Translations under genes and position numbers: made by a program
Notes under the pieces: generated by a model
Told to the model about the DNA's origin: nothing
Seen by the model: the letters and a program-made list of their open reading frames with translations, nothing else
Databases searched by the model: none
DNA from: Candidatus Methylomirabilis limnetica
Lineage (GTDB): Bacteria > Methylomirabilota > Methylomirabilia > Methylomirabilales > Methylomirabilaceae
Length of the DNA stretch: 32,000 nucleotides
NCBI RefSeq assembly: GCF_003044035.1
Contig: NZ_NVQC01000008.1
Location: 60,001-92,000 of the forward strand
Direction of reading: 5' to 3'
Shown here: in pieces, positions 2,748-30,527 of the stretch
Numbering within the stretch: the first letter of the stretch is position 1
Layout of the letters: the number at the start of each line of letters is the position of its first letter

Positions 2748-5450
2748 TCACTTGCCGAGCCGTTCGATCATGACGGCGCAGACTTTGTACTCTGGGATCT
2801 TGGCGAAGGGGTCGTAGACCGAGTTGGTCAGGATATTGGCTCCCGACTCGGCAAGCTTCACGAATGGGATAAAGACCTCTCCTGCTCGTACGGCCTCGGT
2901 GATCTGGGCGTATGCGGTCAGCTCGCCACGACGGGAGGTGAGTCGAACGAGCGTCCCCTGATCGATGTCGAGTCGCCGGGCGTCTTCCGGGTTGATGGCG
3001 ACCTCGAGTCGTGGCGCCAGTTCGAGTAGTCCCTGGACGCGCCGGGTGAGCGTCCCACCGTGCCAGTGGTAGAGGATACGGCCGGTGTTCAGGAGAAACG
3101 GAAAATCGTGATCAGGTAGTTCGGCCGCCTCAGCCGTTTGCACGACGGGGACAAATTGTGCCTTCCCGATGGGGAACGACTCAGCATATAGGAAGCGGGT
3201 GCCCGGGTGATCTGATGTCGGACATGGCCACTGGATCCCCCCTTCCCGGTCTAGTCGGTCGTGAGAGATCCCGGCGAGAAACGGGACCAGTCTCGCCATC
3301 TCTTCGAAGACCTCAGCCGGGTGGGAGTACTCGAACCCCGAACTCAGCACACCAAGCCGTTGGGCTACCCGTCGTGCCAACTCAGATGTAATCCACCAGT
3401 CCGGCTTTGCCTCTCCCGGTGGATCGAGCGCCTTCCTTACTCGCTGAACCCGCCGCTCCGAGTTGGTGAACGTTCCCTCCTTCTCGGCAAAGGCTGCCGC
3501 GGGGAGGAAGACGTGGGCCAGTTCGGCGGTCTCGTGGAGGAACAGGTCCTGGACTACGAGGCAGTCGAGGTTGGAAAGCGCCCGTGTGGCGTGGTGAAGA
3601 TTGGGTTCTGTGAGGAGGGGGTTTTCGCCGACCATGTACATGGCTCGGATCGACCCATCTAGACATGCCTCTATCATTTCAGTAAGCGTTATTCCTGCAC
3701 TGTTGGGAATTCGAACGCCCCAGGCCGCCTCGAACTTTTCCAGGGCTTCAGGAGTGTAGCGCTGATAGCCAGGCAGATGGGTGGGGAGGCATCCGGCGTC
3801 ACAGCACCCCTGGACGTTATTCTGGCCCCTGAGCGGCGAGATACCGGAGCCGGCAAAACCCATCTGTCCGGTGACAAGGGAGAGGTTCAGGAGGGCATGA
3901 ACGTTGGCGGTGCCGTTGGTGTGCTGGGTTATCCCCATCCCCCAGATGAGGCAAGAACCGGCGAAGAGAGGCTTTGCATACCAGCGGGCAGCCTGAACGA
4001 TCTGCTCCTGTGGGACGCCGGTTACCTGTTCAGCGAATTGTAGTGTATACGGTTCCAGCGACTCGCGCCAGGCTTCGAATCCTTCGGTCCGGTTCCGCAT
4101 GAACTCAAGATTCGTTAGCCCTTCATCGATAATCACCCGAGCCATCGCGTTAAAGAGGGTTACGTCAGTACCGGGTCGCTGCTGCAGCCAGAGGTCCGCC
4201 TGGTCGCACAGCTCGATCCGTTTCGGGTTCACGACGATGAGCCTGGCGCCACGACTCACGGCTTGGCGAAGGCGGACGGCGATCACCGGATGGTTCGATG
4301 ACGGGTCGGAGCCGACGACCATGAGGCAGCCGGCCGCCTCGTAATCGTCGTAGGAGTTGGAGGTAGCCCCAGATCCCAGTGAGCGCAGCATTGCCACGAC
4401 CGAAGGCGAATGACAGAGGCGCGCGCAGTGGTCGATGTTGTTGGTGCCCATCACGGCCCGGACAAATTTCTGGACGATATAGCCATCCTCGTTGGTTGCC
4501 TTCGCCGAGGCGAGCGCCCCGAAGCGTCCCCGATTTGTGACCAATCCCTCCGCCGCAGCATCGAGCGCCTCGTCCCAGGATACTGGATGCCAACTCCCAT
4601 TGCGGCGCACCATGGGGGGAGTGATCCGGTCGGCTGCATGGATGAACCCTGTACCGAATCGGCCCTTGACACAGAGCATGCCGAGACTCGATCGATTCGT
4701 GGGGACATCGTCGGCTATCAGCGCGAGGCGACCATCGGCGCGAACGCGAAGGCGTATGCCGCAGCCGACGCCACAGTAGGGGCAGGTCGTCTCGACCTCC
4801 CGCATGACAGGCGCGGGCGCTTCCTTCGGCCGGATGGCCCCCGTGGGACACGTGGCGACGCACTGCCCGCACGAAGTACAGACGGAGGAAGCGAGCGATC
4901 CGTCGCCGAAGACTCCCACCGTAGTCCGGGCGCCTCGCCCCAACAAGGCGATAGCGCCGATCTGTTGGACGTCATTACAGGCTACGGTACAGCGCCCACA
5001 CAGGATGCAGGCATCCCGATCAAGGACGAAGAACGATTTGGTATCGTCCACAGGCGTGTGTCGCCATGGCATATGGCGGCGCTGGAAGAACCCGAGTCTG
5101 GCGCAGGCATCGGAGAGCTGACCAAACCCAGGCCGATTCAACGAGGGGGTCGCCATACCGCACGTGAGGTCAAGGACCCCGTTTCGGATCCGTGTGAGAA
5201 CGGGATCGTTAGTCGAGACCACCATCCCCTCGCGGGCGGGGAGATGACAGGAAGCTGGAAAGCCGTGCATCCCTTCGACCTTGACCAGGCAGGTCCGGCA
5301 GGCACCGAGGGCAGGGCGGTCGGGATCCTTGCAGAGCTGCGGGAGCGGGAGGCCAAGCCGGTTCACGGCGTCGAGGACCGTCGCGCCGGGTTGGACCGCC
5401 ACACTGGTTCCGTTGATAGTCAGACTGACGACCGCATCGCCCATCTTCAT
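2748..5450 (-). CDS. fdhA: NAD-dependent formate dehydrogenase alpha subunit (FdsA/FdhA-like, Cys-type)
   Basis: 900 aa. From the N-terminus: a NuoG-like 2Fe-2S motif (CKDP...CRTCLVKVEG...C), two 4Fe-4S ferredoxin motifs (CILCGRCTVAC, CTSCGQCVATC), a MopB cluster (CPYCGVGCG), an active-site region 'HCARLCHSPS' with Cys rather than a TGA/Sec codon, and a C-terminal molybdopterin dinucleotide-binding domain. Its ATG overlaps the upstream gene's stop (ATGA at 5447-5450). Confidence 0.92.
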   Translation of the reverse strand: MKMGDAVVSLTINGTSVAVQPGATVLDAVNRLGLPLPQLCKDPDRPALGACRTCLVKVEGMHGFPASCHLPAREGMVVSTNDPVLTRIRNGVLDLTCGMATPSLNRPGFGQLSDACARLGFFQRRHMPWRHTPVDDTKSFFVLDRDACILCGRCTVACNDVQQIGAIALLGRGARTTVGVFGDGSLASSVCTSCGQCVATCPTGAIRPKEAPAPVMREVETTCPYCGVGCGIRLRVRADGRLALIADDVPTNRSSLGMLCVKGRFGTGFIHAADRITPPMVRRNGSWHPVSWDEALDAAAEGLVTNRGRFGALASAKATNEDGYIVQKFVRAVMGTNNIDHCARLCHSPSVVAMLRSLGSGATSNSYDDYEAAGCLMVVGSDPSSNHPVIAVRLRQAVSRGARLIVVNPKRIELCDQADLWLQQRPGTDVTLFNAMARVIIDEGLTNLEFMRNRTEGFEAWRESLEPYTLQFAEQVTGVPQEQIVQAARWYAKPLFAGSCLIWGMGITQHTNGTANVHALLNLSLVTGQMGFAGSGISPLRGQNNVQGCCDAGCLPTHLPGYQRYTPEALEKFEAAWGVRIPNSAGITLTEMIEACLDGSIRAMYMVGENPLLTEPNLHHATRALSNLDCLVVQDLFLHETAELAHVFLPAAAFAEKEGTFTNSERRVQRVRKALDPPGEAKPDWWITSELARRVAQRLGVLSSGFEYSHPAEVFEEMARLVPFLAGISHDRLDREGGIQWPCPTSDHPGTRFLYAESFPIGKAQFVPVVQTAEAAELPDHDFPFLLNTGRILYHWHGGTLTRRVQGLLELAPRLEVAINPEDARRLDIDQGTLVRLTSRRGELTAYAQITEAVRAGEVFIPFVKLAESGANILTNSVYDPFAKIPEYKVCAVMIERLGK

Positions 5451-7678
5451 ACCTTTCCAGTGGTATCTGGCGGGATTGAGAGCATCTCTTCAGGAAACTG
5501 ATCAACCGCTGAAAGGAGGGATAGGGGCGCCGATTGACCGAGGCCGCACAGCGAGGCCAGCCGCACCACTTGGGCCAGTTCCTCGAGCTCTTGCCGCCGG
5601 CCAGAGTTCTGAGGCTGCTGAAGGAGCGCGAGCAGGCGACCTGTTCCCTCTCGGCATGGCGTGCATTTTCCACACGACTCCCGCGCATTGAAGGCGAGTA
5701 GTGTCCGAGTGACGTCGCCGATGGAGACGCTCTCGTCGAGACTAACCACACCTCCGCTTCCCGGAGAGAGGTTGCCGCCCGGGACCAGCGGCTCATCGAA
5801 CTGGCTCGGGTGGACGATCACGCCGGATGGTCCACCGACGAGCGCCGCCTTCAGGGGCCGTCCATTTCCACTTCCTCCGCCGATCTCTTCAATCAGGTGC
5901 CGGAGCGTCACGCCCATCGGCGCCTCTACGATCCCCGTTCTGGCAAGATGGCCGGAGAGGCCGAAGAGCTTGGTCCCCCGTCCTCCCCCGAGAGCCGCAA
6001 ACCATGCGGCCCCTCGACTCACAATAAGCGGCACAGCCGCAAGAGTCTCCACGTTGTTGATAACCGTAGGCTTGCCCCACAGCCCTGCCTCCACAGGGAA
6101 CGGAGGTTTAGGGCGAGGCATAGCGCGATTGCCCTCGATCGCTTCCATGAGCGCCGTCTCTTCTCCGAGGATAAAGCCGCCCGCGCCTCGCCGAAGTTCC
6201 AGGTGAAAGGAGAAATCGCTTCCGAGGATCCGCTCGCCAAGCAGTCCGGCCGCCTCAGCCGATCGAAGTGCGGTCCGCATCCGATGGGCCGAGAGATCCG
6301 CCTCACCGTTGATGAAGAGAATGCCGAGGCTGGTTCCAGAGGCAAAGGCTGCCAGGAGGATTCCTTCCAAGAGCCGATGGGGATCACCCTCCATCAGATG
6401 GCGGTCCTTGAAGATTCCAGGCTCACCCTCCTCGCCGTTGATCACGAGGTACTTGGGAGAGCCTGTTGAGTTGCGGCAGGCCTCCCATTTACGCGCGGCT
6501 CCGAAGTACGCCCCGCCACGCCCGGCAAGGCCGGACGCCTTAACCTCGCTGATGACGGCCAGCGGGTCGCCCTGTTCGAGGGTGCGAGCGAAAGCCGCGT
6601 AGCTCCCCTGACGCAAGGCGTCGGCCAGGTCGCTTACATCAACTACGCCACAGCGATCGAGGACAGCTCGATGCTGGCCACGAAGGAACGGCTCCTGGTC
6701 GAGGCCGGAGATTCCGCGCCAGGACGATTCCTGCCAGGCCACCGCCTCAATTCCAGAGGGTGGGCGGTCAGCCTTTAGCGCGGAGACCAACGGGATCACA
6801 TGATCGAGGGTCACCGCCTTGAGCGTAATTCTTGGCCAGCCGGGTCGGTAGAGTTCCACAACGGGAGCGGCGTAGCACATGCCGTTGCAGCCCCCCTCCA
6901 CGACGGTCGCGGACAGCCCTTGGCGCTCAACCTCCTCTGCCAGCCGATCCATAAGGATGTCGGCCCCGACCGACCCGCTACAGCTCCCCACGCCGACGAC
7001 GAGCCTGAGTTCTGAAGGATGCCTCACGAGGCCAGGTCTCACAACGGCCCACGAAAAGGCATCTTCACCCCCTCCTTTACCCTCCCCCCTCGGAGGGGGA
7101 GGGGCCGGGTGGGGGGGATTTTCTGAGGGCAGAGAGGTGAGGGATTGTTCGACAAGCCGCGCGAGGGCAGCCATCGGAGTGTCGCCAGTTGGCTTCAACA
7201 GGGACGGGACTGAGACGAGAGATTTTCGAGGAGATGGAGGATCAAAAATGCGGTCGAGCCGGTCCGTCCCGAGCCGTCCATAGCAGCGGTGATCCACCTC
7301 GACCACAGGGGCCACCCCACACCTGAAGAGGCAGTCGGCCTCTTCGATAGTGACGCTGTGATCCGGCGACGTCTCGCCGGCCATGAGCCCAAGGCGGTCC
7401 TGGAGGGCGTGGAGCAGTGTAAGACCACCCTGGATGCGACAGCTCACGCCTGTACACACCCTAACCAGGCGGGATCCCGGTTTGATAAGGCGGAACTCCG
7501 GGTACTGGGTGGCCACTCCGTACACCTCGCTCGTGGGAACCCGGAGATGTAGGGCTACCACCACGAGGCTCTCCGGACTGAGCCAGCCCTCGGCCTCTTG
7601 CGCCGTTTGCAATGCCGGCAGGAGCCAGGTCCGCTCCCGGGGGAACTGCGCAATTGCGTCGTTGCGTCGTTGCGTCAT
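5447..7678 (-). CDS. Fused NuoE-like (2Fe-2S) + thioredoxin-like ferredoxin + NuoF-like (FMN/NAD/4Fe-4S) diaphorase subunit of formate dehydrogenase (FdsG-FdsB fusion)
   Basis: 743 aa. NuoE-type Cys pattern (CTGVSC...CLFRC). NuoF motifs 'GLAGRGGAYFGAARKWE', 'NGEEGEPGIFKDRHLME' and 'ESCGKCTPCREG'. Translationally coupled to fdhA. Confidence 0.9.
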   Translation of the reverse strand: MTQRRNDAIAQFPRERTWLLPALQTAQEAEGWLSPESLVVVALHLRVPTSEVYGVATQYPEFRLIKPGSRLVRVCTGVSCRIQGGLTLLHALQDRLGLMAGETSPDHSVTIEEADCLFRCGVAPVVEVDHRCYGRLGTDRLDRIFDPPSPRKSLVSVPSLLKPTGDTPMAALARLVEQSLTSLPSENPPHPAPPPPRGEGKGGGEDAFSWAVVRPGLVRHPSELRLVVGVGSCSGSVGADILMDRLAEEVERQGLSATVVEGGCNGMCYAAPVVELYRPGWPRITLKAVTLDHVIPLVSALKADRPPSGIEAVAWQESSWRGISGLDQEPFLRGQHRAVLDRCGVVDVSDLADALRQGSYAAFARTLEQGDPLAVISEVKASGLAGRGGAYFGAARKWEACRNSTGSPKYLVINGEEGEPGIFKDRHLMEGDPHRLLEGILLAAFASGTSLGILFINGEADLSAHRMRTALRSAEAAGLLGERILGSDFSFHLELRRGAGGFILGEETALMEAIEGNRAMPRPKPPFPVEAGLWGKPTVINNVETLAAVPLIVSRGAAWFAALGGGRGTKLFGLSGHLARTGIVEAPMGVTLRHLIEEIGGGSGNGRPLKAALVGGPSGVIVHPSQFDEPLVPGGNLSPGSGGVVSLDESVSIGDVTRTLLAFNARESCGKCTPCREGTGRLLALLQQPQNSGRRQELEELAQVVRLASLCGLGQSAPLSLLSAVDQFPEEMLSIPPDTTGKV
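7065..7122 (-). repeat. G/C-rich palindromic repeat element, copy 1, in frame inside the diaphorase CDS
   Basis: The reverse complement reads 'gaaaatcccccccacccggcccctccccctccgaggggggagggtaaaggagggggtg', nearly identical to the intergenic copy at 8908..8964. The core is an inverted repeat CCCTCCCCC-TCCGA-GGGGGGAGGG. It encodes the linker 'ENPPHPAPPPPRGEGKGGGE'. Confidence 0.75.
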
Positions 7679-8964: not shown

Positions 8965-9109
8965 CGCCGCAGGCTTATGAGGTATTGCTTTGTCAATGCC
9001 AATCCCCCGGTATCCGTGGTAGGGTGTTTGGCGGGGGCAAGTGGCAGGGTCGGCTTGTCACCACATAAGAAATCAGTTAGCATGCCTTCACAGAAGAAGA
9101 GGTTGCAGC

Positions 9110-10327
9110 ATGCCGGGGAGATCCGAAAGGCGAGGAAAGGACAGCGCATCGGAGCTGGAAGAGCTCAGGCGGCGTTGCGAGGAGCTCAGCGCCTCGGTCG
9201 AGTCGATGCGAGCCTATCACGAGGATCTACTGGGAAGCCTGCAAGACGGCATTATCATTGTCGAGCCGGACGGACGTATCCGCTCAATCAATCAAGCAGC
9301 GGAGGAGCTGGCCAGACTATCGGCCCAGATATTTCACGGCAGGCCCTTCGAGCAGATATTTCCGAATGATCGCTCGCTGCAGGAGTTGGTACGGAAGACC
9401 ATGGAGAGCGGCCGGACCCATACTGACTTCGATGCCAGGCTGACGAGACAGGATGGCTCGCAGGTGGTTATCAGCGCCGTTGCCTCCCTCATCAGTGATG
9501 GCATGGGACAGGCGCGGGGCATGGTCCTGGCGCTCCGGGATCAGACAGGGATCAGGGAGCTTGAGGAGCGCCTATCGCGATCAGACCGCCTGGCAGCTCT
9601 CGGTACGGTTGCCACAGGGGTGGCCCACGAGATCCGAAATCCGCTGGCCGGCCTCAGGGGGGCGGCCCAGTTGCTCGAAGGCGAACGTGATTTTCCCCCC
9701 GCGCTTACAGAGTACACCTCGGTCATCATTAAAGAGGTTGATCGGCTAGGCGCGATCGTCGAGCAGCTTCTATCGTTTGCCACGCCACGAGGCCCAGTCC
9801 TTCGTTCATGCAATCTGCACGAGATCCTCGATAGCGTCCTCTTTTTAGAGCGGGCGCCGCTGTGCGCTGCCAATATCACTGTTCAGCGTCAGTACGACCC
9901 CCAGCTCCCTGAAATCCTCGCTGATCCCTCTGAAATTCGACAGCTCTTTCTGAACCTGATCTGTAATGGGGTAGAGGCGATGCCAGGCGGAGGTGAACTC
10001 ACCGTTCTAACATGGTATGAGCGGTCTGCCAAGCGTTGCGGGGGCCGATCGGTGGCCGTGGCCGATATTATCGATCAGGGAAGCGGGTTCGATCCTGAGA
10101 TCGAGCGCCACCTGTTCACCCCTTTCTTCACCACAAAAGAAAGGGGGACCGGGTTGGGGTTGGCCATCTGTCTCCGGATCGTGGAGGACCATGGCGGGGC
10201 CATGGAGGCGACAAGCTTAGCAGGCAGGGGCAGCAGGTTTCGAGTATGGCTTCCCTTGGCGAAGCAACCCGAAGCCGTGTTACCTCATGATGAACCTCAA
10301 CGAACCACGCAAGGTGTCAGGCCATGA
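9110..10327 (+). CDS. Cytoplasmic PAS-domain sensor histidine kinase (NtrB/AtoS-like)
   Basis: PAS segment (LLGSLQDGIIIVEPDGRIRSINQAAEEL), H-box 'HEIRNPLAGL', N box 'LNLICNGVEAM', G boxes 'DQGSGF' and 'GTGLGLAI'. No TM segments. I prefer the ATG at 9110 (SD GAAGAAGAGG upstream) over the ORF-track start at 9041. Confidence 0.85.
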   Translation: MPGRSERRGKDSASELEELRRRCEELSASVESMRAYHEDLLGSLQDGIIIVEPDGRIRSINQAAEELARLSAQIFHGRPFEQIFPNDRSLQELVRKTMESGRTHTDFDARLTRQDGSQVVISAVASLISDGMGQARGMVLALRDQTGIRELEERLSRSDRLAALGTVATGVAHEIRNPLAGLRGAAQLLEGERDFPPALTEYTSVIIKEVDRLGAIVEQLLSFATPRGPVLRSCNLHEILDSVLFLERAPLCAANITVQRQYDPQLPEILADPSEIRQLFLNLICNGVEAMPGGGELTVLTWYERSAKRCGGRSVAVADIIDQGSGFDPEIERHLFTPFFTTKERGTGLGLAICLRIVEDHGGAMEATSLAGRGSRFRVWLPLAKQPEAVLPHDEPQRTTQGVRP

Positions 10328-11787
10328 TCGAGACACGACAGATCCTCGTGGTTGATGACGAAGAAAGCATCCGTTGGACCATGCGCAAGGCGCTTGAGCG
10401 CGAGGGGTATCGGGTTGTACTGGCCGCCGATGGGGTGGAAGGGCTCACGCGGGCTACAGACCCGAGCATCGACCTTGTTCTCATGGATATCAAGATGCCG
10501 GGCGCAGACGGACTGGAGACCCTCAGCAGGATCAAAGAAGCCCGCCCCGAACTTCCCGTCATCATCATGACCGCCTTTGCCACACTCCAGGCTGCGGTCC
10601 AGGCGATGAAGCGCGGGGCCTACGACTACATTACCAAGCCGTTTGACTTCGGTGAGCTCTCGATTCTAGTGCGGCGAGTCTTCGAGATCCGTGAGCTCAC
10701 CGAGCGGGTGGCGCAGATGGAGGCCTTCGGCGGCCGGCCTTTTGACTTCGAGGGCGTGGTAGGCCTCTGCCCGGCCATGCAGCAGATCTTCAAGCTGGTG
10801 GGAAAGATGGCCGCCAGCGACTTGACGGTTCTCATCAGGGGGGAGAGTGGCACCGGCAAGGAGCTGCTGGCTAAAGCGATTCATTACAACAGCCGACGCT
10901 CTGCGCGTCCGTTTGTGGCCATCAACTGCGCTGCCATCCCTCGTGATCTCCTGGAAAGCGAGCTGTTCGGCCATGAGCGTGGGGCCTTTACGGGAGCCAG
11001 CGCCCTTCGACGCGGCAAGTTCGAGCTTGCCGAGGGCGGGACGATCTTCCTCGATGAGATCGGGGACATGGATATTGGCCTACAAGCCAAAATCCTGCGT
11101 GTGCTCCAAGAGCGGCAATTCGAGCGGGTGGGGGGCGAACGGCCGCTGTCTGCAGATGTGAGGGTCATCGCTGCCACCAACCAGAATCTGGAGACCGCCG
11201 TCGCGCAGAAGAGCTTTCGAGAAGACCTCTACTACCGCCTGAACGTCGTGGCCATCAACCTCCCTCTGCTCGGCGAGCGAAGCGAGGACATCCCCCTGCT
11301 TGTGAACCACTTCCTCCACCTGTTTGCAGAAGAACAGAGGCAGGAACCAAAGACCGTCTCTCTAGAGGCGCTCGAGTTGATGCTCGCTTATCGCTGGCCT
11401 GGAAATGTTCGCGAGCTGGAGAATGTTGTAAAGCGGGCCTGCGTGCTTGCCCCGACCTCTCTAATCCTGCCGGAGCATTTGCCTGCCGCTCTCCTGCACG
11501 TAGAGGAGATCGGCGCTGCCGGCGGCAGATCGTCCTTTGATCGGATGCTGTCTCAAGGGATCACGGGCGAGCTTTCCCGTCTGAAACAGGAACGAGACGG
11601 ACAGATCTATTCGTACTTCCTTGCCACGCTGGAGCGACCGCTGCTTTTGCGCGTCATGGAGAGGACCGGCGGAAACCAGCTTCGGGCGGCCGAGTTGCTC
11701 GGGATCAATCGCAATACGCTCCGGAAGAAACTCCGCGAGCTTGGAATTACGCCTGTCCGCGGCGACGAAGAAAAGACGGACCGGTGA
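10324..11787 (+). CDS. Sigma-54-dependent response regulator (NtrC family: REC + AAA+ + Fis-type HTH)
   Basis: Receiver 'LVLMDIKMPGADG', Walker A 'GESGTGKE', sigma-54 contact loop 'GAFTGA', C-terminal 'GGNQLRAAELLGINRNTLRKKLRELGI'. ATGA overlap with the kinase stop. Confidence 0.93.
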   Translation: MIETRQILVVDDEESIRWTMRKALEREGYRVVLAADGVEGLTRATDPSIDLVLMDIKMPGADGLETLSRIKEARPELPVIIMTAFATLQAAVQAMKRGAYDYITKPFDFGELSILVRRVFEIRELTERVAQMEAFGGRPFDFEGVVGLCPAMQQIFKLVGKMAASDLTVLIRGESGTGKELLAKAIHYNSRRSARPFVAINCAAIPRDLLESELFGHERGAFTGASALRRGKFELAEGGTIFLDEIGDMDIGLQAKILRVLQERQFERVGGERPLSADVRVIAATNQNLETAVAQKSFREDLYYRLNVVAINLPLLGERSEDIPLLVNHFLHLFAEEQRQEPKTVSLEALELMLAYRWPGNVRELENVVKRACVLAPTSLILPEHLPAALLHVEEIGAAGGRSSFDRMLSQGITGELSRLKQERDGQIYSYFLATLERPLLLRVMERTGGNQLRAAELLGINRNTLRKKLRELGITPVRGDEEKTDR

Positions 11788-19528: not shown

Positions 19529-20074
19529 CTACCTCAAGAGGCTCTCAACCAGTGTCCTCGAAGCCTTGTTGGCCCAGTCATGGTATCCAATGTCTTTGGC
19601 GCGAATGATGCCTTGGCGGTCGATCAGGATCGAGACAGGAAGCCCGATAAGCCGGAACTTCCGACTGGCCTTCATATCAGTGTCGAGCGCTACGGGAAAG
19701 GTGAGGCGAAGCTCCTTAATGAAGTCGCGGATCTCTTGCTGTGCGTCCGGCTCGATGTTGACAGCGAGGATCTCCAACCCTTTTGCCTTGTACTCGGAGT
19801 AGACCTGCTGCATCGTCGGCATCTCTAGCCGGCAAGGGGGGCACCAGGTAGCCCAGAAGTTGATCAGCACAACCTTCTGGCCCCGAAACTCCGAGAGCCG
19901 AACGGTGTTTCCCTCAAGCGTCTTCAGCGTAAAGTCAGGCGCGAAGTGTCCCTCTTCGGGTCGCACATCATTAGCCCATACGTCAGTTCCTCCTGGCGTG
20001 CCACCTATAACGAGTCCGAGAATGATGGAGATGATCGCTATCTGGGATAGTAAACAGCAGAGATAGCGTCTCAT
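19529..20074 (-). CDS. TlpA/ResA-like periplasmic thiol:disulfide oxidoreductase
   Basis: N-terminal membrane anchor. Thioredoxin motif 'FWATWCPPCRLEMP' and redoxin fold pattern. Confidence 0.87.
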   Translation of the reverse strand: MRRYLCCLLSQIAIISIILGLVIGGTPGGTDVWANDVRPEEGHFAPDFTLKTLEGNTVRLSEFRGQKVVLINFWATWCPPCRLEMPTMQQVYSEYKAKGLEILAVNIEPDAQQEIRDFIKELRLTFPVALDTDMKASRKFRLIGLPVSILIDRQGIIRAKDIGYHDWANKASRTLVESLLR

Positions 20075-20283: not shown

Positions 20284-20338
20284 CGCCGCAGGTCAAATCG
20301 TGATTGACATTAGGGGGTGAAACGATTGACCTGCGGCG
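20284..20338 (+). promoter_or_regulatory. Long inverted repeat upstream of the Crp/Fnr gene
   Basis: 'cgccgcaggtcaaatcgt' -(20 nt)- 'acgattgacctgcggcg'. The ~17-bp arms have one bulge, and the loop contains TTGACA. It ends 64 nt before the ATG at 20402. Confidence 0.4.
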
Positions 20339-20401
20339 TTCGTCCGCCTACAATAAGACCGGCGTTCGGGACTTCCCCCGTTTCGTTATCCCAGGGTAGC
20401 C

Positions 20402-21067
20402 ATGTTGCCAGAGCAGTTGAAGTCGATTCCGTATTTCCAGGACCTCGATGCGCGAGCACTGGAGGGTATCCGGGCTCACGCATTTGAGGTACGGTTGCAG
20501 AAGGGACACGTTCTCTTTACGGAGGGGGAGCCGGCCCAGGCGATGTACGTGATTCGGTCCGGTAAGGTCAAGATCTTCAAGCTGTCCCCCGACGGACGCG
20601 AGCAGGTCCTCCGGATTGCAGAGGCCGGAGATTGTTTCAATGAGGTCCCGATCTTCGATGGTGGGCCGAACCCCGCCAACGCCCAGGCGGTGGAGCCGGC
20701 GGCGCTCTGGGGCATCCGGCGGGAGGAGATGCGGCGCCTGGTAGAGGAGCACCCGGCGATCGCGATCGGCTTTCTCAAGGCGTTTGCGGGGAAGCTTCGC
20801 TACTTCACCCGCAAGGTGGAGGACCTGTCCTTCCGTAGCGTGACAAGCCGCGTGGCCAAGTTCCTCTTGGAGATGGCCGAGGATGACGGCAGAGGAGGTC
20901 TGCGCCTGAAGCAGCAGTTCACGCAACAGGAGATAGCGTCCGTTGTGGGAACGGCCCGAGAGATGATCGGCCGGGCCTTCAAGGCCCTGGAAAAGGAAGG
21001 AGCCATCAAGCTCGATCGCCACCAGGTCATCATCGTAAGCCGGGCTGCCATGATTCGCCTGCTCTGA
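20402..21067 (+). CDS. Crp/Fnr-family transcriptional regulator (cNMP-binding-like domain + HTH; no N-terminal Fnr Cys cluster)
   Basis: 221 aa. 'GEPAQAMYVIRSGKVKIFKLSPDGREQVL' beta-roll pattern. C-terminal HTH 'TQQEIASVVGTAREMIGRAFKALEKEG'. Confidence 0.9.
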   Translation: MLPEQLKSIPYFQDLDARALEGIRAHAFEVRLQKGHVLFTEGEPAQAMYVIRSGKVKIFKLSPDGREQVLRIAEAGDCFNEVPIFDGGPNPANAQAVEPAALWGIRREEMRRLVEEHPAIAIGFLKAFAGKLRYFTRKVEDLSFRSVTSRVAKFLLEMAEDDGRGGLRLKQQFTQQEIASVVGTAREMIGRAFKALEKEGAIKLDRHQVIIVSRAAMIRLL

Positions 21068-21189
21068 CCTCACCGTTGCCCTTCTTGTAATGCGTGAGAC
21101 TAAAGTCGCATACACCTCTGAATCACCCCCCTATGCTAGAATGGACGCTGAGCAAACAACAACCTGAGAAAAAAGGAGGCAAAAGACTT

Positions 21190-21804
21190 ATGACCAACGA
21201 GAGCAGTTGCCATGAAGGGCACGTCAGTCCAACGCCCGAGCCAAAGACCTGCGACACCCAATCGACGGGTACGCCAATGCCAGAGGTACTTCGAGATCTA
21301 CCCGATGATCGCGTGGTAATCCTGGATATTCGTGAACAGGTGCGGGGAGGCGAAGAGCCGTTTCAGAGGATCATGCAAACCGTCATGTCCCTCCGAGACG
21401 ACCAGGTACTCAAGCTATGTAATATCTTCGAGCCGATACCGCTTTACGCTGCCTTGGCGCAACGGGGTCTCGCTCACTGGACGCAGCGGCGTGGCCCAGA
21501 AGATTGGTGCATCATGTTTTATCGAGCGGGGGCCGAGGCCGCGACCTCTCCGGCGTCCTGCACCTCGTCGAGGCCAGCGGAGCCTGTCGGGGACGCCATC
21601 GTTGTTGACGCCCGTGGACTAGAGCCACCACAGCCGATGGCGAAGATCCTGGAGAATCTCCCTCAGATTGCAGCGGGTGGAAAGATCCTGGCCATGACCG
21701 ACCGGCGGCCGATGCTGCTCTACCCGAAGTTGGAGGAGCGGGGCTTCGTCTTCTCCACCGAGGAAACGACGCATGGCTGGTTCGAAACCCGGATCTGGAA
21801 GTAG
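21190..21804 (+). CDS. Tandem DUF2249-domain protein with Cys/His-containing N-terminal tail
   Basis: There are two DUF2249-like modules: 'VILDIREQVRGGEEPFQRIMQTV...FEPIPLYAALAQRG' and 'VVDARGLEPPQPMAKILENLPQ...DRRPMLLYPKLEERG'. I prefer the ATG at 21190 because of a perfect SD (AAAGGAGG) upstream. The ORF-track start at 21094 is unlikely. Confidence 0.75.
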   Translation: MTNESSCHEGHVSPTPEPKTCDTQSTGTPMPEVLRDLPDDRVVILDIREQVRGGEEPFQRIMQTVMSLRDDQVLKLCNIFEPIPLYAALAQRGLAHWTQRRGPEDWCIMFYRAGAEAATSPASCTSSRPAEPVGDAIVVDARGLEPPQPMAKILENLPQIAAGGKILAMTDRRPMLLYPKLEERGFVFSTEETTHGWFETRIWK

Positions 21805-23098
21805 CGCCCCGGCCAGGCTGCCATCCCTCTGGGTGCCGCTACGCTATTTTGTGACGGCTCAGGTAGCCTTCGTGACCGCCATGCTCTGGGCGCCATGGCA
21901 GGTCAGCAATCTGCTGGACTTTTACTATCAGGGGCATGACCTCGCCCTCACCCATCTGCTGACTCTTGGGTGGATCACGATGACGATCATGGGGGCGTCG
22001 TTCCAGTTGGTCCCGGTCGCCCTGGAGACCACGCTGTGGAGCGAGCGCCTGGCCTGCTGGCAGTACTGGATTATGCTGCTCGGTGTCGCGATTATGGTGA
22101 GCCATTTCTGGATCGGTCATCACGAGGGTTTGGCCTTCGGCGCCGGTCTGGTGCTGGTTGCCGTGACACTTTTCCTGATCAATATGGGGCGCACACTGTG
22201 GCAGCTCCCCCACTGGGACATCGTGGGGCGACACATGGCGGCTGCGCTCGTCTACCTGGCCTCCACCGTGGTCATGGGAAACCTGATGGCGCTCGATAAG
22301 ATTTTCGACTTCTTAGGAGGTCAGGTCCTGACGACGATACACGCCCACGCCCACCTGGCCGGCATCGGCTGGGTCACCATGATGATCTTCGGGGCGAGCT
22401 ATAAACTGATCCCCATGTTCAGCCTGAGTGAGCTTCGCGATGAGCGGCTGGCCTACTGGGAGTTCTGGCTGCTCCACGTCGGTCTAGTCGGCCTCTACAT
22501 GACGCTCCTGCTGCAAAGTCCGTGGGCCACGCTGTTCGCTCTCCTGATCGCCACAGCGGTGGGCCTGTTCCTCTGGACGATGCGCGATGTCATGCGGGTA
22601 CGCCGGCGTCCGCGATTGGACTGGGGGCTGCGGCATACTATGAGCGCCATGACCACGCTCGCGATCGTGACGATCCTGGGTCTATGGCTGAGTACCGGTT
22701 GGCTCCCGAGCGATGAGTTTGCCGCCCGGCTGGCCTTTGGCTATGGGGTCCTGGCACTCCTGGGCTGGGTCTCCGCCATGATCATCGGCCTGATGTATAA
22801 GATCATCCCGTTCCTGGTTTGGCACCACCGTTACAGCGATCTCATAGGACTGCGGTCTGTTCCAGCCGCCGCCCAGATTCTTGGTGAGTCAACGCCTCGG
22901 ATGGAGTTCTGGCTGCTCTATGCGGGTATCGCGATGACCGTTACCGGAGTGATCTTCACGTCCTGGCTGCTCGTGCAGGTGGGTACGCTCGTGTTGGCAC
23001 TGGCGGGTCTGACGTTCGCCGTCGCCGTCTGTCGGATCTACTGCCATCTGGTTCCACGCCTGACGCCGCTTCCGGAGGCGCAGATTGTGGGAACATAA
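21773..23098 (+). CDS. 12-TM His-containing integral membrane protein with three-fold internal repeat (distantly heme-copper-oxidase-subunit-I-like or NnrS-like; function unknown)
   Basis: 441 aa and highly hydrophobic. The motif H-x-L-x-x-x-GW(I/V)(T/S)(M/A)(T/M)I(M/F/I)G(A/L)(S/M)(F/Y)(Q/K)(L/I)(V/I)P recurs at aa ~60, ~193 and ~325. 'ERLA(C/Y)W(Q/E)(Y/F)W' recurs ~25 aa after it. The gene overlaps the preceding gene by 32 nt. Confidence 0.75.
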   Translation: MAGSKPGSGSSAPARLPSLWVPLRYFVTAQVAFVTAMLWAPWQVSNLLDFYYQGHDLALTHLLTLGWITMTIMGASFQLVPVALETTLWSERLACWQYWIMLLGVAIMVSHFWIGHHEGLAFGAGLVLVAVTLFLINMGRTLWQLPHWDIVGRHMAAALVYLASTVVMGNLMALDKIFDFLGGQVLTTIHAHAHLAGIGWVTMMIFGASYKLIPMFSLSELRDERLAYWEFWLLHVGLVGLYMTLLLQSPWATLFALLIATAVGLFLWTMRDVMRVRRRPRLDWGLRHTMSAMTTLAIVTILGLWLSTGWLPSDEFAARLAFGYGVLALLGWVSAMIIGLMYKIIPFLVWHHRYSDLIGLRSVPAAAQILGESTPRMEFWLLYAGIAMTVTGVIFTSWLLVQVGTLVLALAGLTFAVAVCRIYCHLVPRLTPLPEAQIVGT

Positions 23099-23120
23099 GA
23101 CCCGCAGTTGATCCGCTTGG

Positions 23121-23288
23121 AGAATGACCGACCTCGCACAAGCTACGGGGTATCGTCTTCTGTTCTGGCCCGTCATTCCGTGCTTGACACGCCTGCCCCG
23201 TACTTGATGCGGGGGAATCCAGTCGGGTCCTCTGGATACCGGCTTCCGCCGGTATGACGAACTCGGGGCAAGCCGCGGGGAATGAACC
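23121..23288 (-). repeat. Multi-hairpin dispersed repeat ('VIPAEAGIQ / ARNDG' pseudo-peptide family), copy A
   Basis: The reverse complement shares 'cgtcataccggcgg-aagccggtatccagagg-cccgactggattcc...gtgtcaagcacggaatgacgggccagaacagaagacgatacc' with 30384..30527. It carries an extra hairpin module CCCCGcatcaagtaCGGGG. Confidence 0.75.
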
Positions 23289-23340
23289 CCCCTCAGTAGG
23301 TTCAAGAAGTGAAGGTACTAAAGGTACATGAAAAGGAGGC

Positions 23341-23685
23341 ATGATGACGGAACCAGAAACATCACCAGTGACTGAAGAGCAGATCTACACCACGCTCCGA
23401 AAGCTCATTGATCCGGAATTAGGAGTCAACATCGTGGATCTGGGCCTCGTCTACAACGTACAGATTGATGATGGCGAGGTCACCGTCCGTATGACCCTTA
23501 CCACACGCGGCTGCCCCCTGCATGGCACTTTCGTCCAGGCGATCGAGCGCAGCCTCAATGAGCTGGACGGCGTGACCGGCGTGACCGTCGATGTCGTGTG
23601 GGAACCCGCCTGGAATCCGGACATGATCACCCCTGAGGGGAAGCAAACGATGTCCAGCGCTGGACGTGGTGGGCCCGCATGGTGA
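23341..23685 (+). CDS. DUF59 / SufT-like (MIP18 family) Fe-S cluster assembly protein
   Basis: 'IYTTLRKLIDPELGVNIVDLGLVYNVQIDDGEVTVRMTLTTRGCPLHGTF...' is the canonical DUF59 pattern. The SD AAGGAGG lies immediately upstream, so the ATG at 23344 is also possible. Confidence 0.87.
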   Translation: MMTEPETSPVTEEQIYTTLRKLIDPELGVNIVDLGLVYNVQIDDGEVTVRMTLTTRGCPLHGTFVQAIERSLNELDGVTGVTVDVVWEPAWNPDMITPEGKQTMSSAGRGGPAW

Positions 23686-24755
23686 CGCCAGCGTTGACGG
23701 TCGATACGGTTATCGCGGCGCTTCGGCAGATAAAGTACCCGGGGATGAGTCGCGACATCGTGTCTATCGGTGTGGTGAAGGATACGCAACTGGATGGCGC
23801 TGACGTGTACCTCGACCTCCAGGTCCCGACGGAGGATCGCGAGGTCATCGCCAAGGTGGAGGCTGCGGTTCGCGAGACGCTCGCCCGCGTGCCTGGGATC
23901 GGTGATATGCGGATCCAGATCGGCCCACGCCCTGCATCTCCGGATTCCGCGCCCGGACCGTCTCCGCTCCCTGGCGTTCGGCGTATCATCGCCGTCGCTT
24001 CAGGTAAAGGCGGTGTGGGCAAGACGACTGTATCCGTCAACCTGGCCTTGGCCCTGGCGCAGTCGGGGGCTGCGGTGGGCTTGCTGGATGCCGACATCTA
24101 CGGGCCGAATGTTCCGCGGATGCTGGGCGAGCCGGGCCGTCCCAAGGCGGATGAGGGCAAGATTGTCCCGCTTGTGCGATACGGCCTGAAGGTGATATCG
24201 GTGGGGTATCTGCTGGGGGATCGGTCGCCGATAATCTGGCGTGGGCCTTTGGTGGCCCAGGCCTTGCGCCAACTCCTGCATGATGTACGGTGGGGCGAGC
24301 TGGACTACCTGATCGTAGATCTTCCCCCAGGGACGGGGGACGCCCAGTTGACCCTCGTACAGTCCGTACCGTTGACCGGTGGGGTCATCGTGACTACCCC
24401 CTCCGCCGTGGCCCTGATGGACGCAGAGAAAGGCCTGCAGATGTTTCGTGAGGCCCGCGTCCCGATTCTGGGCATTGTGGAGAACATGAGCTACTTTATC
24501 TGTCCCCACTGCCAGGGAGAAACCGACATCTTCAGCCGGGGCGGTGGACGTACGGTGAGTGAATCGCTTGGAGTGTCTTTCCTGGGGGAGATCCCCATCA
24601 ACCCGGCTATCCGCGAGGGCGGGGATATCGGCGCGCCCGTTGTCGTGGCGAAGCCGGAGTCCCCCGAAGCGCTGATCTTCCGCAATCTCGCGGAAAAGGT
24701 TCGCCTGGAGGCCGAGGCTGCCGCCGTGGCGATGCCTCAGGTGATCATCCGCTAA
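23679..24755 (+). CDS. Mrp/NBP35/ApbC-family P-loop Fe-S cluster carrier ATPase with N-terminal DUF59 domain
   Basis: Deviant Walker A 'ASGKGGVGKTT', 'VDLPPGTGD', and the CxxC cluster-ligand motif 'ICPHCQGETDIF'. Its start overlaps the previous stop (ATGGTGA). Confidence 0.93.
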   Translation: MVTPALTVDTVIAALRQIKYPGMSRDIVSIGVVKDTQLDGADVYLDLQVPTEDREVIAKVEAAVRETLARVPGIGDMRIQIGPRPASPDSAPGPSPLPGVRRIIAVASGKGGVGKTTVSVNLALALAQSGAAVGLLDADIYGPNVPRMLGEPGRPKADEGKIVPLVRYGLKVISVGYLLGDRSPIIWRGPLVAQALRQLLHDVRWGELDYLIVDLPPGTGDAQLTLVQSVPLTGGVIVTTPSAVALMDAEKGLQMFREARVPILGIVENMSYFICPHCQGETDIFSRGGGRTVSESLGVSFLGEIPINPAIREGGDIGAPVVVAKPESPEALIFRNLAEKVRLEAEAAAVAMPQVIIR

Positions 24756-24794
24756 TAACCAATAACTCTGTATCTTTCCAAGGAGGAAGTCACG

Positions 24795-25679
24795 ATGTCA
24801 GCAAGCTATGCAACAACCGTCGATGCCCGCATCCTACCGGTCCCGCAGAAGCACCCAACCATCTTCCGTGCCTTCGATGGGCTGGCGGTCGGGACTGCCA
24901 TGCTCTTGGTCAACGACCATGATCCCAAGCCGCTTTACTACACATTCGCCGCAGAGCGGGCTGGGGAGTTCGAATGGCGCTATCTGGAGAAGGGTCCAGA
25001 GGTGTGGCAGGTGGAGATCAGCCGGATTGCCGATGCCACAGGCAGACAGGCGCCCCCTGATACAATGGGCTGTGGTGGACTCCACGCGCACCACGAACAT
25101 CACGATCATCACGCGCACCAGCATGCCCACACCGGTTCTCCGACCCAGATCCTCAAGGACGAACATACCCTGATCCTTGAGGCTTTGGATGGGGTGGAGC
25201 GCAAGCTCGCCGCATTAGAGTCCGGCGCCGCCCCGGATCGAGCCTATTTCGAGAAGGCGGTAAGGTTTATCCGAACCTTCGCTGACGAGTGCCATCACGG
25301 CAAGGAGGAGAACCTGCTGTTCAAGACCATGGTGGACCGCGGCTTTCCATTGCAAGGGGGACCTATCGCGGTCATGCTGTCGGAGCACGAAGCCGGCCGC
25401 GGATACATCCGTGAGATGGCCGAGGCCTCGGCGAGCGTGGTGCAGGATAAGGCTGCGACAGAGAAGATCATCCGGAACGGGCGTGCTTACATCCAGATGC
25501 TGCGGCCTCACATCGATAAGGAGAACATGATCCTGTATGCGATGGCGGACAATATGTTTAGCCCTGAGGACCAGGCGGAGATGGGAAAGGCGTTCGAGCG
25601 CTTCGAGACTGAAAAGATCGGCGCGAACGTCCATGAGGAGATGATGACACTACAGGCGGAGTTGAAGGCGGGCGCCTAA
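24795..25679 (+). CDS. DUF2249 - His-rich linker - hemerythrin (HHE cation-binding) fusion protein
   Basis: N-terminal 'KHPTIFRAFDGLAVGTAMLLVNDHDPKPLYYTFAAERAGEFEWRYLEKGPEVWQVEISR' (DUF2249). Linker 'HAHHEHHDHHAHQHAH'. Hemerythrin-type ligand spacing 'LKDEH...', 'CHHGKEENLLF', 'MLSEHEAG', 'HIDKENMILY'. SD AAGGAGGAAG. Confidence 0.88.
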   Translation: MSASYATTVDARILPVPQKHPTIFRAFDGLAVGTAMLLVNDHDPKPLYYTFAAERAGEFEWRYLEKGPEVWQVEISRIADATGRQAPPDTMGCGGLHAHHEHHDHHAHQHAHTGSPTQILKDEHTLILEALDGVERKLAALESGAAPDRAYFEKAVRFIRTFADECHHGKEENLLFKTMVDRGFPLQGGPIAVMLSEHEAGRGYIREMAEASASVVQDKAATEKIIRNGRAYIQMLRPHIDKENMILYAMADNMFSPEDQAEMGKAFERFETEKIGANVHEEMMTLQAELKAGA

Positions 25680-30321: not shown

Positions 30322-30383
30322 ATACGTCAGCGCCATTCGCTTTCGCGAGAAGGCTCGGAAGGCTCGAATCCACTGGGGGTTTA

Positions 30384-30527
30384 TTCCCAGCGACTTGCCG
30401 CGAGGTCGTCATACCGGCGGAGAGAAGCCGGTATCCAGAGGGCCCGACTGGATTCCGTGTCAAGCACGGAATGACGGGCCAGAACAGAAGACGATACCCA
30501 GCGACTTGCCGCGAGGTAGTTCATTAA
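30384..30527 (+). repeat. Multi-hairpin dispersed repeat, copy B
   Basis: It is bounded by the direct repeats 'cccagcgacttgccgcgaggt' (30386 and 30497). Internal hairpins are ACCGGC...GCCGGT, ATCCAG...CTGGAT and TTCCGTG...CACGGAA. Same family as 23121..23288, in the opposite orientation. Confidence 0.75.

Follow-up and report, generated by a model that had tools for sequence, protein, structure and literature searches.

Which process is served by a string of six same-strand genes that joins a Crp/Fnr-family regulator, two DUF2249 proteins, a protein with 12 transmembrane (TM) helices, a stand-alone DUF59 protein and an Fe-S carrier of the Mrp/ApbC type? This question is raised by positions 20402-25679 of a stretch of 32,000 nucleotides from Candidatus Methylomirabilis limnetica (contig NZ_NVQC01000008.1, positions 60,001 to 92,000 of the forward strand), which as a whole is referred to as the window. 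Nitric oxide (NO) is an obligate intermediate of the nitrite-dependent methane oxidation of Methylomirabilis and of denitrification. The reading that we favor, and hold with moderate confidence, is that the cluster encodes a Crp-controlled NO/denitrification module, in which a single-heme protein related to the heme-copper oxidases (HCOs) and its DUF2249 and DUF59 partners protect or mature iron and Fe-S centers. The conserved core of the module is DUF2249 / HCO-like / DUF59 / DUF2249; Mrp and the hemerythrin fusion are lineage-specific additions.

Gene order, neighborhood and spread of the module

All six genes were recovered on the plus strand by translation of the open reading frames (ORFs) at the positions given in a preliminary description of this DNA, and scans against Pfam and NCBIfam agree with the domain assignments made there. 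The features of the cluster are as follows:

20402-21067, plus strand: Crp/Fnr-family regulator, 221 amino acids, with cNMP_binding and HTH_Crp_2
21190-21804, plus strand: DrpB-like tandem DUF2249 protein, 204 amino acids
21773-23098, plus strand: HCO-homology membrane protein, 441 amino acids, 12 TM helices as three homologous 4-TM units
about 23122-23297, strand unassigned: dispersed repeat in the spacer between the HCO-like and DUF59 genes, resembling a miniature inverted-repeat transposable element (MITE) or repetitive extragenic palindrome (REP)
23341-23685, plus strand: stand-alone DUF59 (FeS_assembly_P) protein, 114 amino acids
23679-24755, plus strand: Mrp/ApbC-type P-loop Fe-S carrier, 358 amino acids
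24795-25679, plus strand: DrpA-like DUF2249 domain, Cys-/His-rich linker and YtfE/RIC-like hemerythrin in one protein, 294 amino acids

The membrane protein corresponds to PTL37131.1 (CLG94_00950) and the hemerythrin fusion to PTL37134.1 (CLG94_00965). For the tandem-DUF2249 gene the longest ORF begins with the GTG at 21094, and the ATG at 21190 is likely the true start because it is preceded by AAGGAGG and because the gene call of 188 amino acids in M. oxyfera agrees with it. The overlaps of 32 nt (21773-21804) and of 7 nt (ATGGTGA, 23679-23685) reported before follow from the gene coordinates, and such start/stop overlaps between genes suggest translational coupling. A terminator scan gave no convincing intrinsic terminator between the cluster genes, and Rfam and tRNA scans of the window gave no match. 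Close homologs of the membrane protein are found exclusively in NC10, and in M. oxyfera the entire cluster is syntenic, including the divergent upstream redoxin and porin genes.

The gene neighborhood was surveyed in a census of 80 species-representative loci (NC10, many Verrucomicrobiota and a few others) annotated with iterated hidden Markov models seeded from the domains of the window. DUF2249 lies directly upstream of the HCO-like gene at 75 of 77 evaluable loci (with two domains in 56), DUF59 directly downstream at 72 of 74, and a further DUF2249 follows DUF59 at 55 of 72. This synteny spans NC10 and Verrucomicrobiota at 35-40% identity. The co-occurrence of the families in other genomes, on which the idea of a conserved functional cluster had been staked, is thereby borne out for the DUF2249/HCO-like/DUF59 core, but not for Mrp and hemerythrin as conserved parts: because Mrp was found at 5 of the 80 loci and hemerythrin at about 11 (as a fusion in NC10 and as a gene of its own in a few Verrucomicrobiota), the six-gene set is a Methylomirabilis-specific elaboration. 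That unrelated housekeeping genes have come together fortuitously has virtually no probability; Mrp and DUF59 are indeed common housekeeping families, but the gene order is kept across at least five phyla, some of the genes are fused and reading frames overlap, and the census refutes this explanation. Two loci without the partner genes represent a separate NC10 paralog clade. Such paralogous HCO-like proteins, with about 44% identity and in some cases weak matches to NnrS, were seen at the NC10 loci L013, L014 and L085 without DUF2249, DUF59 or Crp neighbors, and this clade was left out of the module because no partner genes lie nearby.

Searches with tblastn against plasmids placed the HCO-like family on megaplasmids of Thermus, rhizobia and haloarchaea. 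In Thermus thermophilus SG0.5JP17-16 the gene string reads narGHJI, narK, drpA, drpB, a single-unit HCO-like protein of 144 amino acids, a protoglobin, an HCO-like protein of 383 amino acids and DUF59, where DrpA is a DUF2249 protein of 72 amino acids and DrpB consists of DUF1858 and two DUF2249 domains (273 amino acids), sizes and domains that match the published description. On the Thermus plasmid pTHTHE1601 (L086, 7557-8833), the 144-amino-acid protein has a weak COX1 match to one 4-TM unit and the protoglobin carries a ThiS-like tail. R. etli p42f encodes DUF2249, a 450-amino-acid HCO-like protein, a tandem DUF2249 protein and DUF59 between norECBQD-hemN and nnrS-nirK-nirV-nnrR-nnrU, and in H. 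gibbonsii the HCO-like gene and a neighboring DUF2249 gene lie about 5 kb from nirK. The flanks in Verrucomicrobiota contain at 18 loci a copper nitrite reductase of the NirK type that has canonical copper motifs and ends in a cytochrome c tail, a NirV-like FGE-sulfatase protein at 17, SCO1 at 15, a DGC-domain protein at 13 and YgbA_NO at 11. The four-part module is hence embedded in loci for nitrite, NO or nitrate respiration in NC10, Verrucomicrobiota, Deinococcota, Alphaproteobacteria and Halobacteria, and the context of nitrite and NO metabolism that had been supposed is borne out by the nirK-adjacent loci, the Thermus nar genes, the R. etli nor and nirK genes and the haloarchaeal nirK. 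A gene for a thioredoxin-fold protein of the redoxin/SCO1 type is repeatedly found beside the module: in NC10 (19529-20074 of the window, minus strand, with the same synteny in M. oxyfera), in Verrucomicrobiota and in H. gibbonsii (see also L089, 3879-4352).

These neighbors bear on the explanation that the module is an assembly or accessory system for cNOR, qNOR, NO dismutase, NirK or Nar that delivers heme or non-heme iron or stabilizes these enzymes, which we consider rather improbable. It is suggested by hemN and norECBQD next to the R. etli module, by the SCO1 and NirV maturation genes close by in Verrucomicrobiota and by the fact that Thermus drpAB mutants lose nitrate reductase activity. 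The nearby enzyme, however, is Nar in Thermus and NirK in Verrucomicrobiota and haloarchaea, and none is near in Methylomirabilis; this variation by lineage argues against a dedicated chaperone for one enzyme, and a 12-TM hemoprotein-like core would be unusual for an assembly factor.

The repeat of about 165 nt that interrupts the cluster was first described as structured. Its minimum free energy is no better than that of shuffled sequence (z = -1.48), and it is a lineage-specific dispersed element: another copy, about 90% identical, is found on the minus strand at about 30372-30526, where 23 nt are deleted and 4 nt inserted in comparison with the copy in the spacer, and M. oxyfera lacks the element, the gap between the HCO-like and DUF59 genes being 66 nt there. 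In the closest relative (L004, about 2290-2495) another insertion, flanked by the inverted repeats GCTGAAGGCTGAAGGCTG and CAGCCTTCAGCCTTCAGCC, occupies the same spacer, and in other NC10 lineages (L007, L009, L011) GC-rich hairpins are seen 3' of the HCO-like gene. This spacer seems to be a preferred target of small mobile or REP-like elements. That the repeat is a structured RNA or acts in regulation was considered and rejected in view of the z-score, the second copy in the window, the absence from M. oxyfera and the different insertion in L004. Since there are a second copy, no special fold, no counterpart in M. oxyfera and other insertions in relatives, the repeat is a small inserted element, mobile or REP-like, in a spacer that tolerates it, and lies outside of the functional module.

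The membrane protein and its soluble partners

The membrane protein is not an orphan and scores 60.3 bits against the Pfam family COX1 (gathering threshold 34.8). Its confident AlphaFold2 model (pLDDT 83.5, pTM 0.84) has 12 long helices, and the best matches in the Protein Data Bank (PDB) found with Foldseek are cbb3 CcoN, cNOR NorB and subunit I of aa3/bo3 oxidases (E about 1e-7, TM-score 0.62-0.70, 11-16% identity). The triplication proposed for the 12-TM protein is confirmed by HHalign comparisons among the three 4-TM units (probability 98.2-98.6%, E 1e-14 to 5e-16). The protein is a triplicated member of the HCO superfamily; profile and structure searches thus place it in a redox/metal superfamily and not in a transporter family unrelated to such chemistry; the latter outcome would have spoken against the preliminary description. 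The HCO-like family comprises 876 clusters at 50% identity (E <= 1e-30).

In a profile search against PDB sequences, the TM6 motif HaHaHLaalGW aligns with the motif GHVHaGalGW of CcoN helix X, which bears the two heme ligands. The family alignment shows H61, H192, H194, Y324 and H425 conserved in NC10 and Verrucomicrobiota, and after addition of the Rhizobium and Thermus homologs H61 (TM2) and H192 (TM6) are the sole invariant histidines. Both are located 7-8 residues into their helices, and the homologous positions of HCO helix X carry the heme ligands. Compared with the canonical six-histidine set of HCO/NO reductase (NOR) proteins (TM2, TM6, the TM7 HH pair and H-x-H in TM10), four of six ligands are missing in the alignment; neither TM7 nor TM10 contains a conserved histidine, and Tyr324 sits in TM10. 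The helix boundaries and the strongly positive TM8-TM9 loop point to an N-in topology, in which H61 and H192 would lie close to the outer face, as the corresponding residues of oxidases do. This pattern and topology agree with one bis-His heme rather than with a binuclear catalytic center, and the protein most likely binds one heme b via H61 and H192 toward the outer side of the membrane.

Whether the protein could itself be a new catalytic enzyme, i.e., an NO reductase or another membrane enzyme converting N-oxides or O2 with one heme and a non-heme metal supplied by the partners, has to be judged from the same residues. The HCO/NOR fold, the additional conserved H194 and Y324 in the clade of NC10 and Verrucomicrobiota, and the position beside nirK in 18 species of Verrucomicrobiota, where no nor gene lies within 8 kb, are in its favor. 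The missing four of six ligands, the lack of the TM7 HH pair and the number of only two universal histidines speak against it, and neither an electron-entry subunit (CoxB, CcoO, NorC) nor a fused quinol domain was found in the window, in M. oxyfera or at the census loci, nor was there evidence for a quinol site. We consider catalysis highly improbable.

In four mutually divergent representatives of the family (P0220, P0269, P0282, P0287) DUF59 is naturally fused to the C-terminus of the HCO-like protein, which argues for an action of DUF59 on the cytoplasmic side of this protein. Of two further long proteins, P0236 (704 amino acids) is an HCO-like::DUF3108 fusion, and P0154 (862 amino acids) contains two stretches that match the family profile and has no Pfam match. 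The stand-alone DUF59 protein of the window is a standard member with the conserved Cys motif TTRGCP. The Mrp/ApbC protein matches ParA/NUBPL (PF10609) with 335 bits, has an N-terminal DUF59, the Walker A motif GKGGVGKT and a CPHC motif, and reaches 331.7 bits with the NCBIfam equivalog ApbC (cut-off 348).

The DUF2249 domains sort into position-specific classes when compared across loci. The C-terminal domain of the tandem protein is TusA-like, with LEPPQP in place of the TusA Cys motif, and the class encoded downstream has a conserved KHP...NDHDP...PLYYQF signature. Thermus DrpA and the N-terminal domain of the hemerythrin fusion share 56.5% identity (E 4e-29), and DrpB residues 109-271, the tandem region, share 36% with the tandem protein of the window (E 2e-26). 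The latter lacks the DUF1858 of the DrpB architecture (DUF1858 and two DUF2249 domains), and in other NC10 lineages (L007) the upstream protein has the full architecture including DUF1858. At the position that DUF1858 occupies in other NC10 lineages and in Thermus DrpB, the window protein has a Cys/His-rich tail of low complexity (21190-21320, SSCHEGH...KTCD). Sequence searches found no solved structure for DUF2249.

In the hemerythrin fusion, the His-rich linker LHAHHEHHDHHAHQHAH described before is real and is kept with variable length in the NC10 orthologs. The assignment of the hemerythrin to the YtfE/RIC type stands as well: the closest solved relative is E. coli YtfE, and the di-iron ligand motifs, which are conserved across orthologs, align with those of 5fnn and 7bha. 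With the NCBIfam YtfE equivalog the fusion scores 25.2 bits (cut-off 254), DUF2249 replacing ScdA_N. Literature searches on Methylomirabilis and hemerythrin returned nothing specific.

Taken further, these architectures could describe a hitherto unrecognized membrane machine, common among denitrifiers and nitrite reducers, with the HCO-like protein as pseudo-trimeric core, capped on the cytoplasmic side by the three DUF2249 domains and DUF59, that performs NO turnover or couples the sensing of NO or redox state at the membrane to the repair of iron centers and to the Crp regulator. We rate this as unlikely. If it were true, the one-heme NOR relative would under the turnover option be the missing NO-handling step in Verrucomicrobiota that have nirK only, and Thermus DrpA and DrpB would be machine subunits rather than nitrate sensors.

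The regulator, its promoter and the genetics of DUF2249 proteins

The regulator combines a cNMP-binding-like domain with a Crp-type helix-turn-helix (Pfam). As noted before, it lacks the Fnr Cys cluster; the whole protein has a single Cys, and none is N-terminal. Identity amounts to 33% with Thermus DnrT and 24% with R. etli NnrR, and against the NCBIfam equivalogs all scores are far below the cut-off. The recognition helix TAREMIGR has the CRP-like pattern RE--GR, compared with E--SR in DnrT. At 10 of 10 NC10 loci the DrpB-like gene is preceded by a 20-bp element, g.GAGACTaAaGTCgCAgAC, even where the flanks have diverged or a ferredoxin gene has been gained, and in an anchored alignment of NC10 it always lies 24 nt from a TAT(N)CT hexamer. 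Three promoter features result for the window:

21095-21110, plus strand: Crp-type box TGAGACTAAAGTCGCA, TGAGA-N6-TCGCA, in the GA-N6-TC register with the core GAC-N4-GTC
21132-21137, plus strand: predicted -10 hexamer TATGCT, corresponding to the conserved TAT(N)CT in the anchored alignment
20326-20354, plus strand: sigma-70-like promoter candidate TTGACC-17-TACAAT upstream of the regulator gene, 10/12 match

Since TATGCT at 21132-21137 fixes the spacing, the box would be centered at about -41.5 from the putative start site, predicted near 21144-21150; this is the geometry of a class II activator. The box is the sole exact match within the window, and the DnrT-dependent promoter region of Thermus drp contains TTGAC-CCAG-GTCAT with the same GAC-N4-GTC core. 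The supposition that the cluster is equipped with a Crp-family regulator of its own is supported, and a Crp-type box is conserved with it. Of the two places for which a Crp/Dnr-type box had been suggested, a conserved one lies upstream of 21190, and upstream of 23341 no conserved box was found; the candidate considered there, GGTACTAAAGGTAC upstream of DUF59, was rejected as it is not conserved in relatives. The canonical FNR box TTGAT-N4-ATCAA has no site in the intergenic regions of the cluster. Between the conserved box and the DrpB-like gene, non-Methylomirabilis NC10 (L007-L011) have a small Cys-rich ORF resembling 2 x [4Fe-4S] ferredoxins.

For the sigma-70-like candidate, the scan as a whole showed no enrichment over shuffles, and the TACAAT hexamer is seemingly kept in Methylomirabilis relatives (partial alignment). 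A near-perfect inverted repeat, GCAGGTCAAATCG and CGATTGACCTGC, lies at 20288-20300 and 20323-20334, its right arm overlapping the candidate -35 hexamer TTGACC, and it may be an operator or autoregulatory site.

DrpA and DrpB are the sole DUF2249 proteins that were studied experimentally. It was shown that Thermus drpAB is induced by anoxia and nitrate through DnrT and that DrpB is membrane-associated without a TM segment (PMC6282519). In the drpAB double mutant NarG protein is made but nitrate reductase activity is low, and drpB deletion renders Pnar and Pdnr constitutive, DrpA and DrpB altering the levels of DnrS and DnrT (PMC6282519). A signalling explanation starts from this last result: the HCO-like hemoprotein would sense NO, O2 or the redox state, the DUF2249 proteins would relay the signal to the Crp regulator as co- or anti-activators, and the output would be gene regulation. 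We regard this as possible but tentative. The regulator has no intrinsic Fe-S sensor, a protoglobin, typically a sensor domain, is part of the Thermus module, and at many verrucomicrobial loci a single DUF2249 gene is directly upstream of a Crp gene (23 domains of the class 'other'). DUF59, Mrp and a RIC-like hemerythrin, however, have no signalling precedent, DUF59 is the tightest-linked partner and even fused to the membrane protein, and the Thermus double mutant makes NarG yet loses nitrate reductase activity; NarG made without activity suggests that the maturation or protection of a cofactor is at stake, and the effects on regulation could be an indirect result of this. The gene pair in Verrucomicrobiota is exemplified by L016 (13122-14474) and L022 (10539-11591), where the DUF2249 domain is of the N-terminal tandem class, and this recurring pair hints at a partnership of DUF2249 and regulator. 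Over the census, a Crp-family gene lies within 8 kb at 41 of 80 loci.

DUF2249 presumably equals COG4309. COG4309 was predicted in 2005 to be a member of the NnrR, NsrR and DNR regulons (PMC1274295). In Haloferax all four DUF2249 genes, including a Mrp::DUF2249 fusion, are induced in denitrification (PMC11218638). The earlier statement that no function has been characterized consequently holds in part, given the genetics of DrpA and DrpB (PMC6282519), the regulon prediction (PMC1274295) and the HCO-homology families, which together with their DUF2249 association were reported from bioinformatics in 2014 (Pei et al., as cited in PMC11218638).

Elsewhere in the window, two genes on the minus strand (2748-7678) encode a NuoE/NuoF-like fusion (743 amino acids) and a formate-dehydrogenase-like molybdopterin oxidoreductase (900 amino acids) with an N-terminal 2Fe-2S/4Fe-4S module, which together look like a soluble NAD-linked formate dehydrogenase. 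On the plus strand (9041-11787), a PAS histidine kinase and a sigma-54-dependent response regulator are encoded in overlapping frames with no obvious tie to the cluster.

The proposed protective module and its relation to known systems

In the protective or maturing module that we favor, the Crp-family regulator, being closest to Thermus DnrT, would activate a class II promoter via the TGAGA-N6-TCGCA box and drive an operon of DrpB-like, HCO-like, DUF59, Mrp/ApbC and DrpA-like::hemerythrin genes. The HCO-like hemoprotein would form the membrane core, on whose conserved cytoplasmic face, with the motifs SER..W and PFLVW, DUF59 and the three DUF2249 domains may dock. When NO arises from nitrite reduction, this assembly would protect, repair or mature iron and Fe-S centers, akin to NnrS plus RIC, and Methylomirabilis, for which NO is an obligate intermediate, would have added an Fe-S carrier and a di-iron repair domain. 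One possibility, already raised in the preliminary description, is that the soluble proteins insert a metal center into the membrane protein. The published data on Thermus, Haloferax and COG4309 fit an NO-linked role.

Several points weigh against this reading. The authors of the Thermus study interpreted the genetics as nitrate sensing and regulation and not as repair, and reported DrpA to be periplasmic (PMC6282519). The components that hint most strongly at repair, Mrp and hemerythrin, are absent at most of the census loci. The protein of the window does not match the NnrS profile (PF05940), and some relatives reach 18-26 bits (gathering threshold 28). The box pattern is not statistically enriched in the window, so that the evidence for the box is its phylogenetic conservation and its position; in Verrucomicrobiota no equivalent box was found, TGCGA-N6-TCGCA not being enriched (0.43 vs 0.68 per kb). 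Finally, binding of the regulator to the box at 21095-21110 is predicted from sequence, and heme binding, a physical complex, a response to NO and a protective or maturation activity are likewise predictions for this clade.

The individual pieces were already known or predicted. What is new is the link of drpAB to the HCO-like/DUF59 pair, the HCO-like::DUF59 fusions, the quantitative census, the NC10 promoter box and the Methylomirabilis-specific extension, by which four formerly separate threads are joined, i.e., HCO-homology proteins, COG4309/DUF2249 in NO regulons, Thermus DrpA/DrpB and DUF59/Mrp/RIC. This bears on the protection of iron centers from NO and on the roles of NnrS-like and DUF2249 proteins. 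It is predicted that the membrane protein holds one bis-His heme, that DUF59 and DUF2249 cap it on the cytoplasmic side and that the promoter is of the class II Crp type, and as the module is present in the tractable T. thermophilus, R. etli and Haloferax, its function is directly testable. Because the membrane protein keeps a three-fold repetition at the sequence level, it is also relevant to the evolution of the oxidase/NOR fold.

With Thermus DrpA/DrpB the cluster shares the DUF2249 homology, expression dependent on a Crp-family regulator (as predicted for the window), and an HCO-like gene and DUF59 later in the gene string. It differs in that the DrpB-like protein of the window has no DUF1858, the DrpA-like domain is fused to hemerythrin and the gene order is another, while the Thermus module has an extra protoglobin and single-unit HCO-like protein and lacks Mrp. 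In analogy to YtfE/RIC, the hemerythrin fusion has the di-iron motifs H-x-x-KEE, GPI-x-VM-x-SEH and HI-x-x-EN and a small N-terminal accessory domain; the latter, however, is DUF2249 and not ScdA_N, and the equivalog score is far below the cut-off. ApbC/Mrp and DUF59 proteins (SufT/TM0487-like) are matched by the ParA/NUBPL domain, the Walker A and CxxC motifs and the canonical DUF59 with its conserved Cys, but here DUF59 is partnered or fused with a membrane HCO-like protein and not with SUF, ISC or CIA.

CcoN and NorB have the overall fold of the membrane protein, its three-fold pseudosymmetry and, close to the outer face, histidines on their central helices, whereas the window protein lacks four of six ligands, the binuclear center and a gene for a partner redox subunit. 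A 2014 study by Pei, Li, Kinch and Grishin (Protein Sci 23:1220) reportedly describes HCO homology (HCOH) proteins, which combine three evolutionary units and in which two histidines are conserved. The window protein has three homologous 4-TM units, most like TM9-12 of HCOs, with about two conserved histidines, and it is expected to belong to these three-unit families. PMC11218638 cites Pei et al. for the association of DUF2249 with the HCO superfamily. Common to both are the 12 TM helices in three 4-TM units, the two conserved histidines, the denitrification/NO context and the DUF2249 neighbors; the tie to DrpA/DrpB, the near-universal DUF59 partner with its fusions and the Mrp/hemerythrin extension go beyond the HCOH families and come from the present analysis.

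NnrS is a heme- and copper-containing membrane protein of NO regulons, and work in V. cholerae is said to have proposed that it protects the cellular iron pool from NO. Like the HCO-like protein, it spans the membrane with 12 helices and its gene lies beside nirK, nirV and genes for nnrR-type regulators, and some HCO-like members show distant similarity to it. In contrast, NnrS has no obligatory DUF2249/DUF59 partners, and because R. etli encodes both side by side, NnrS and the HCO-like protein are distinct proteins.

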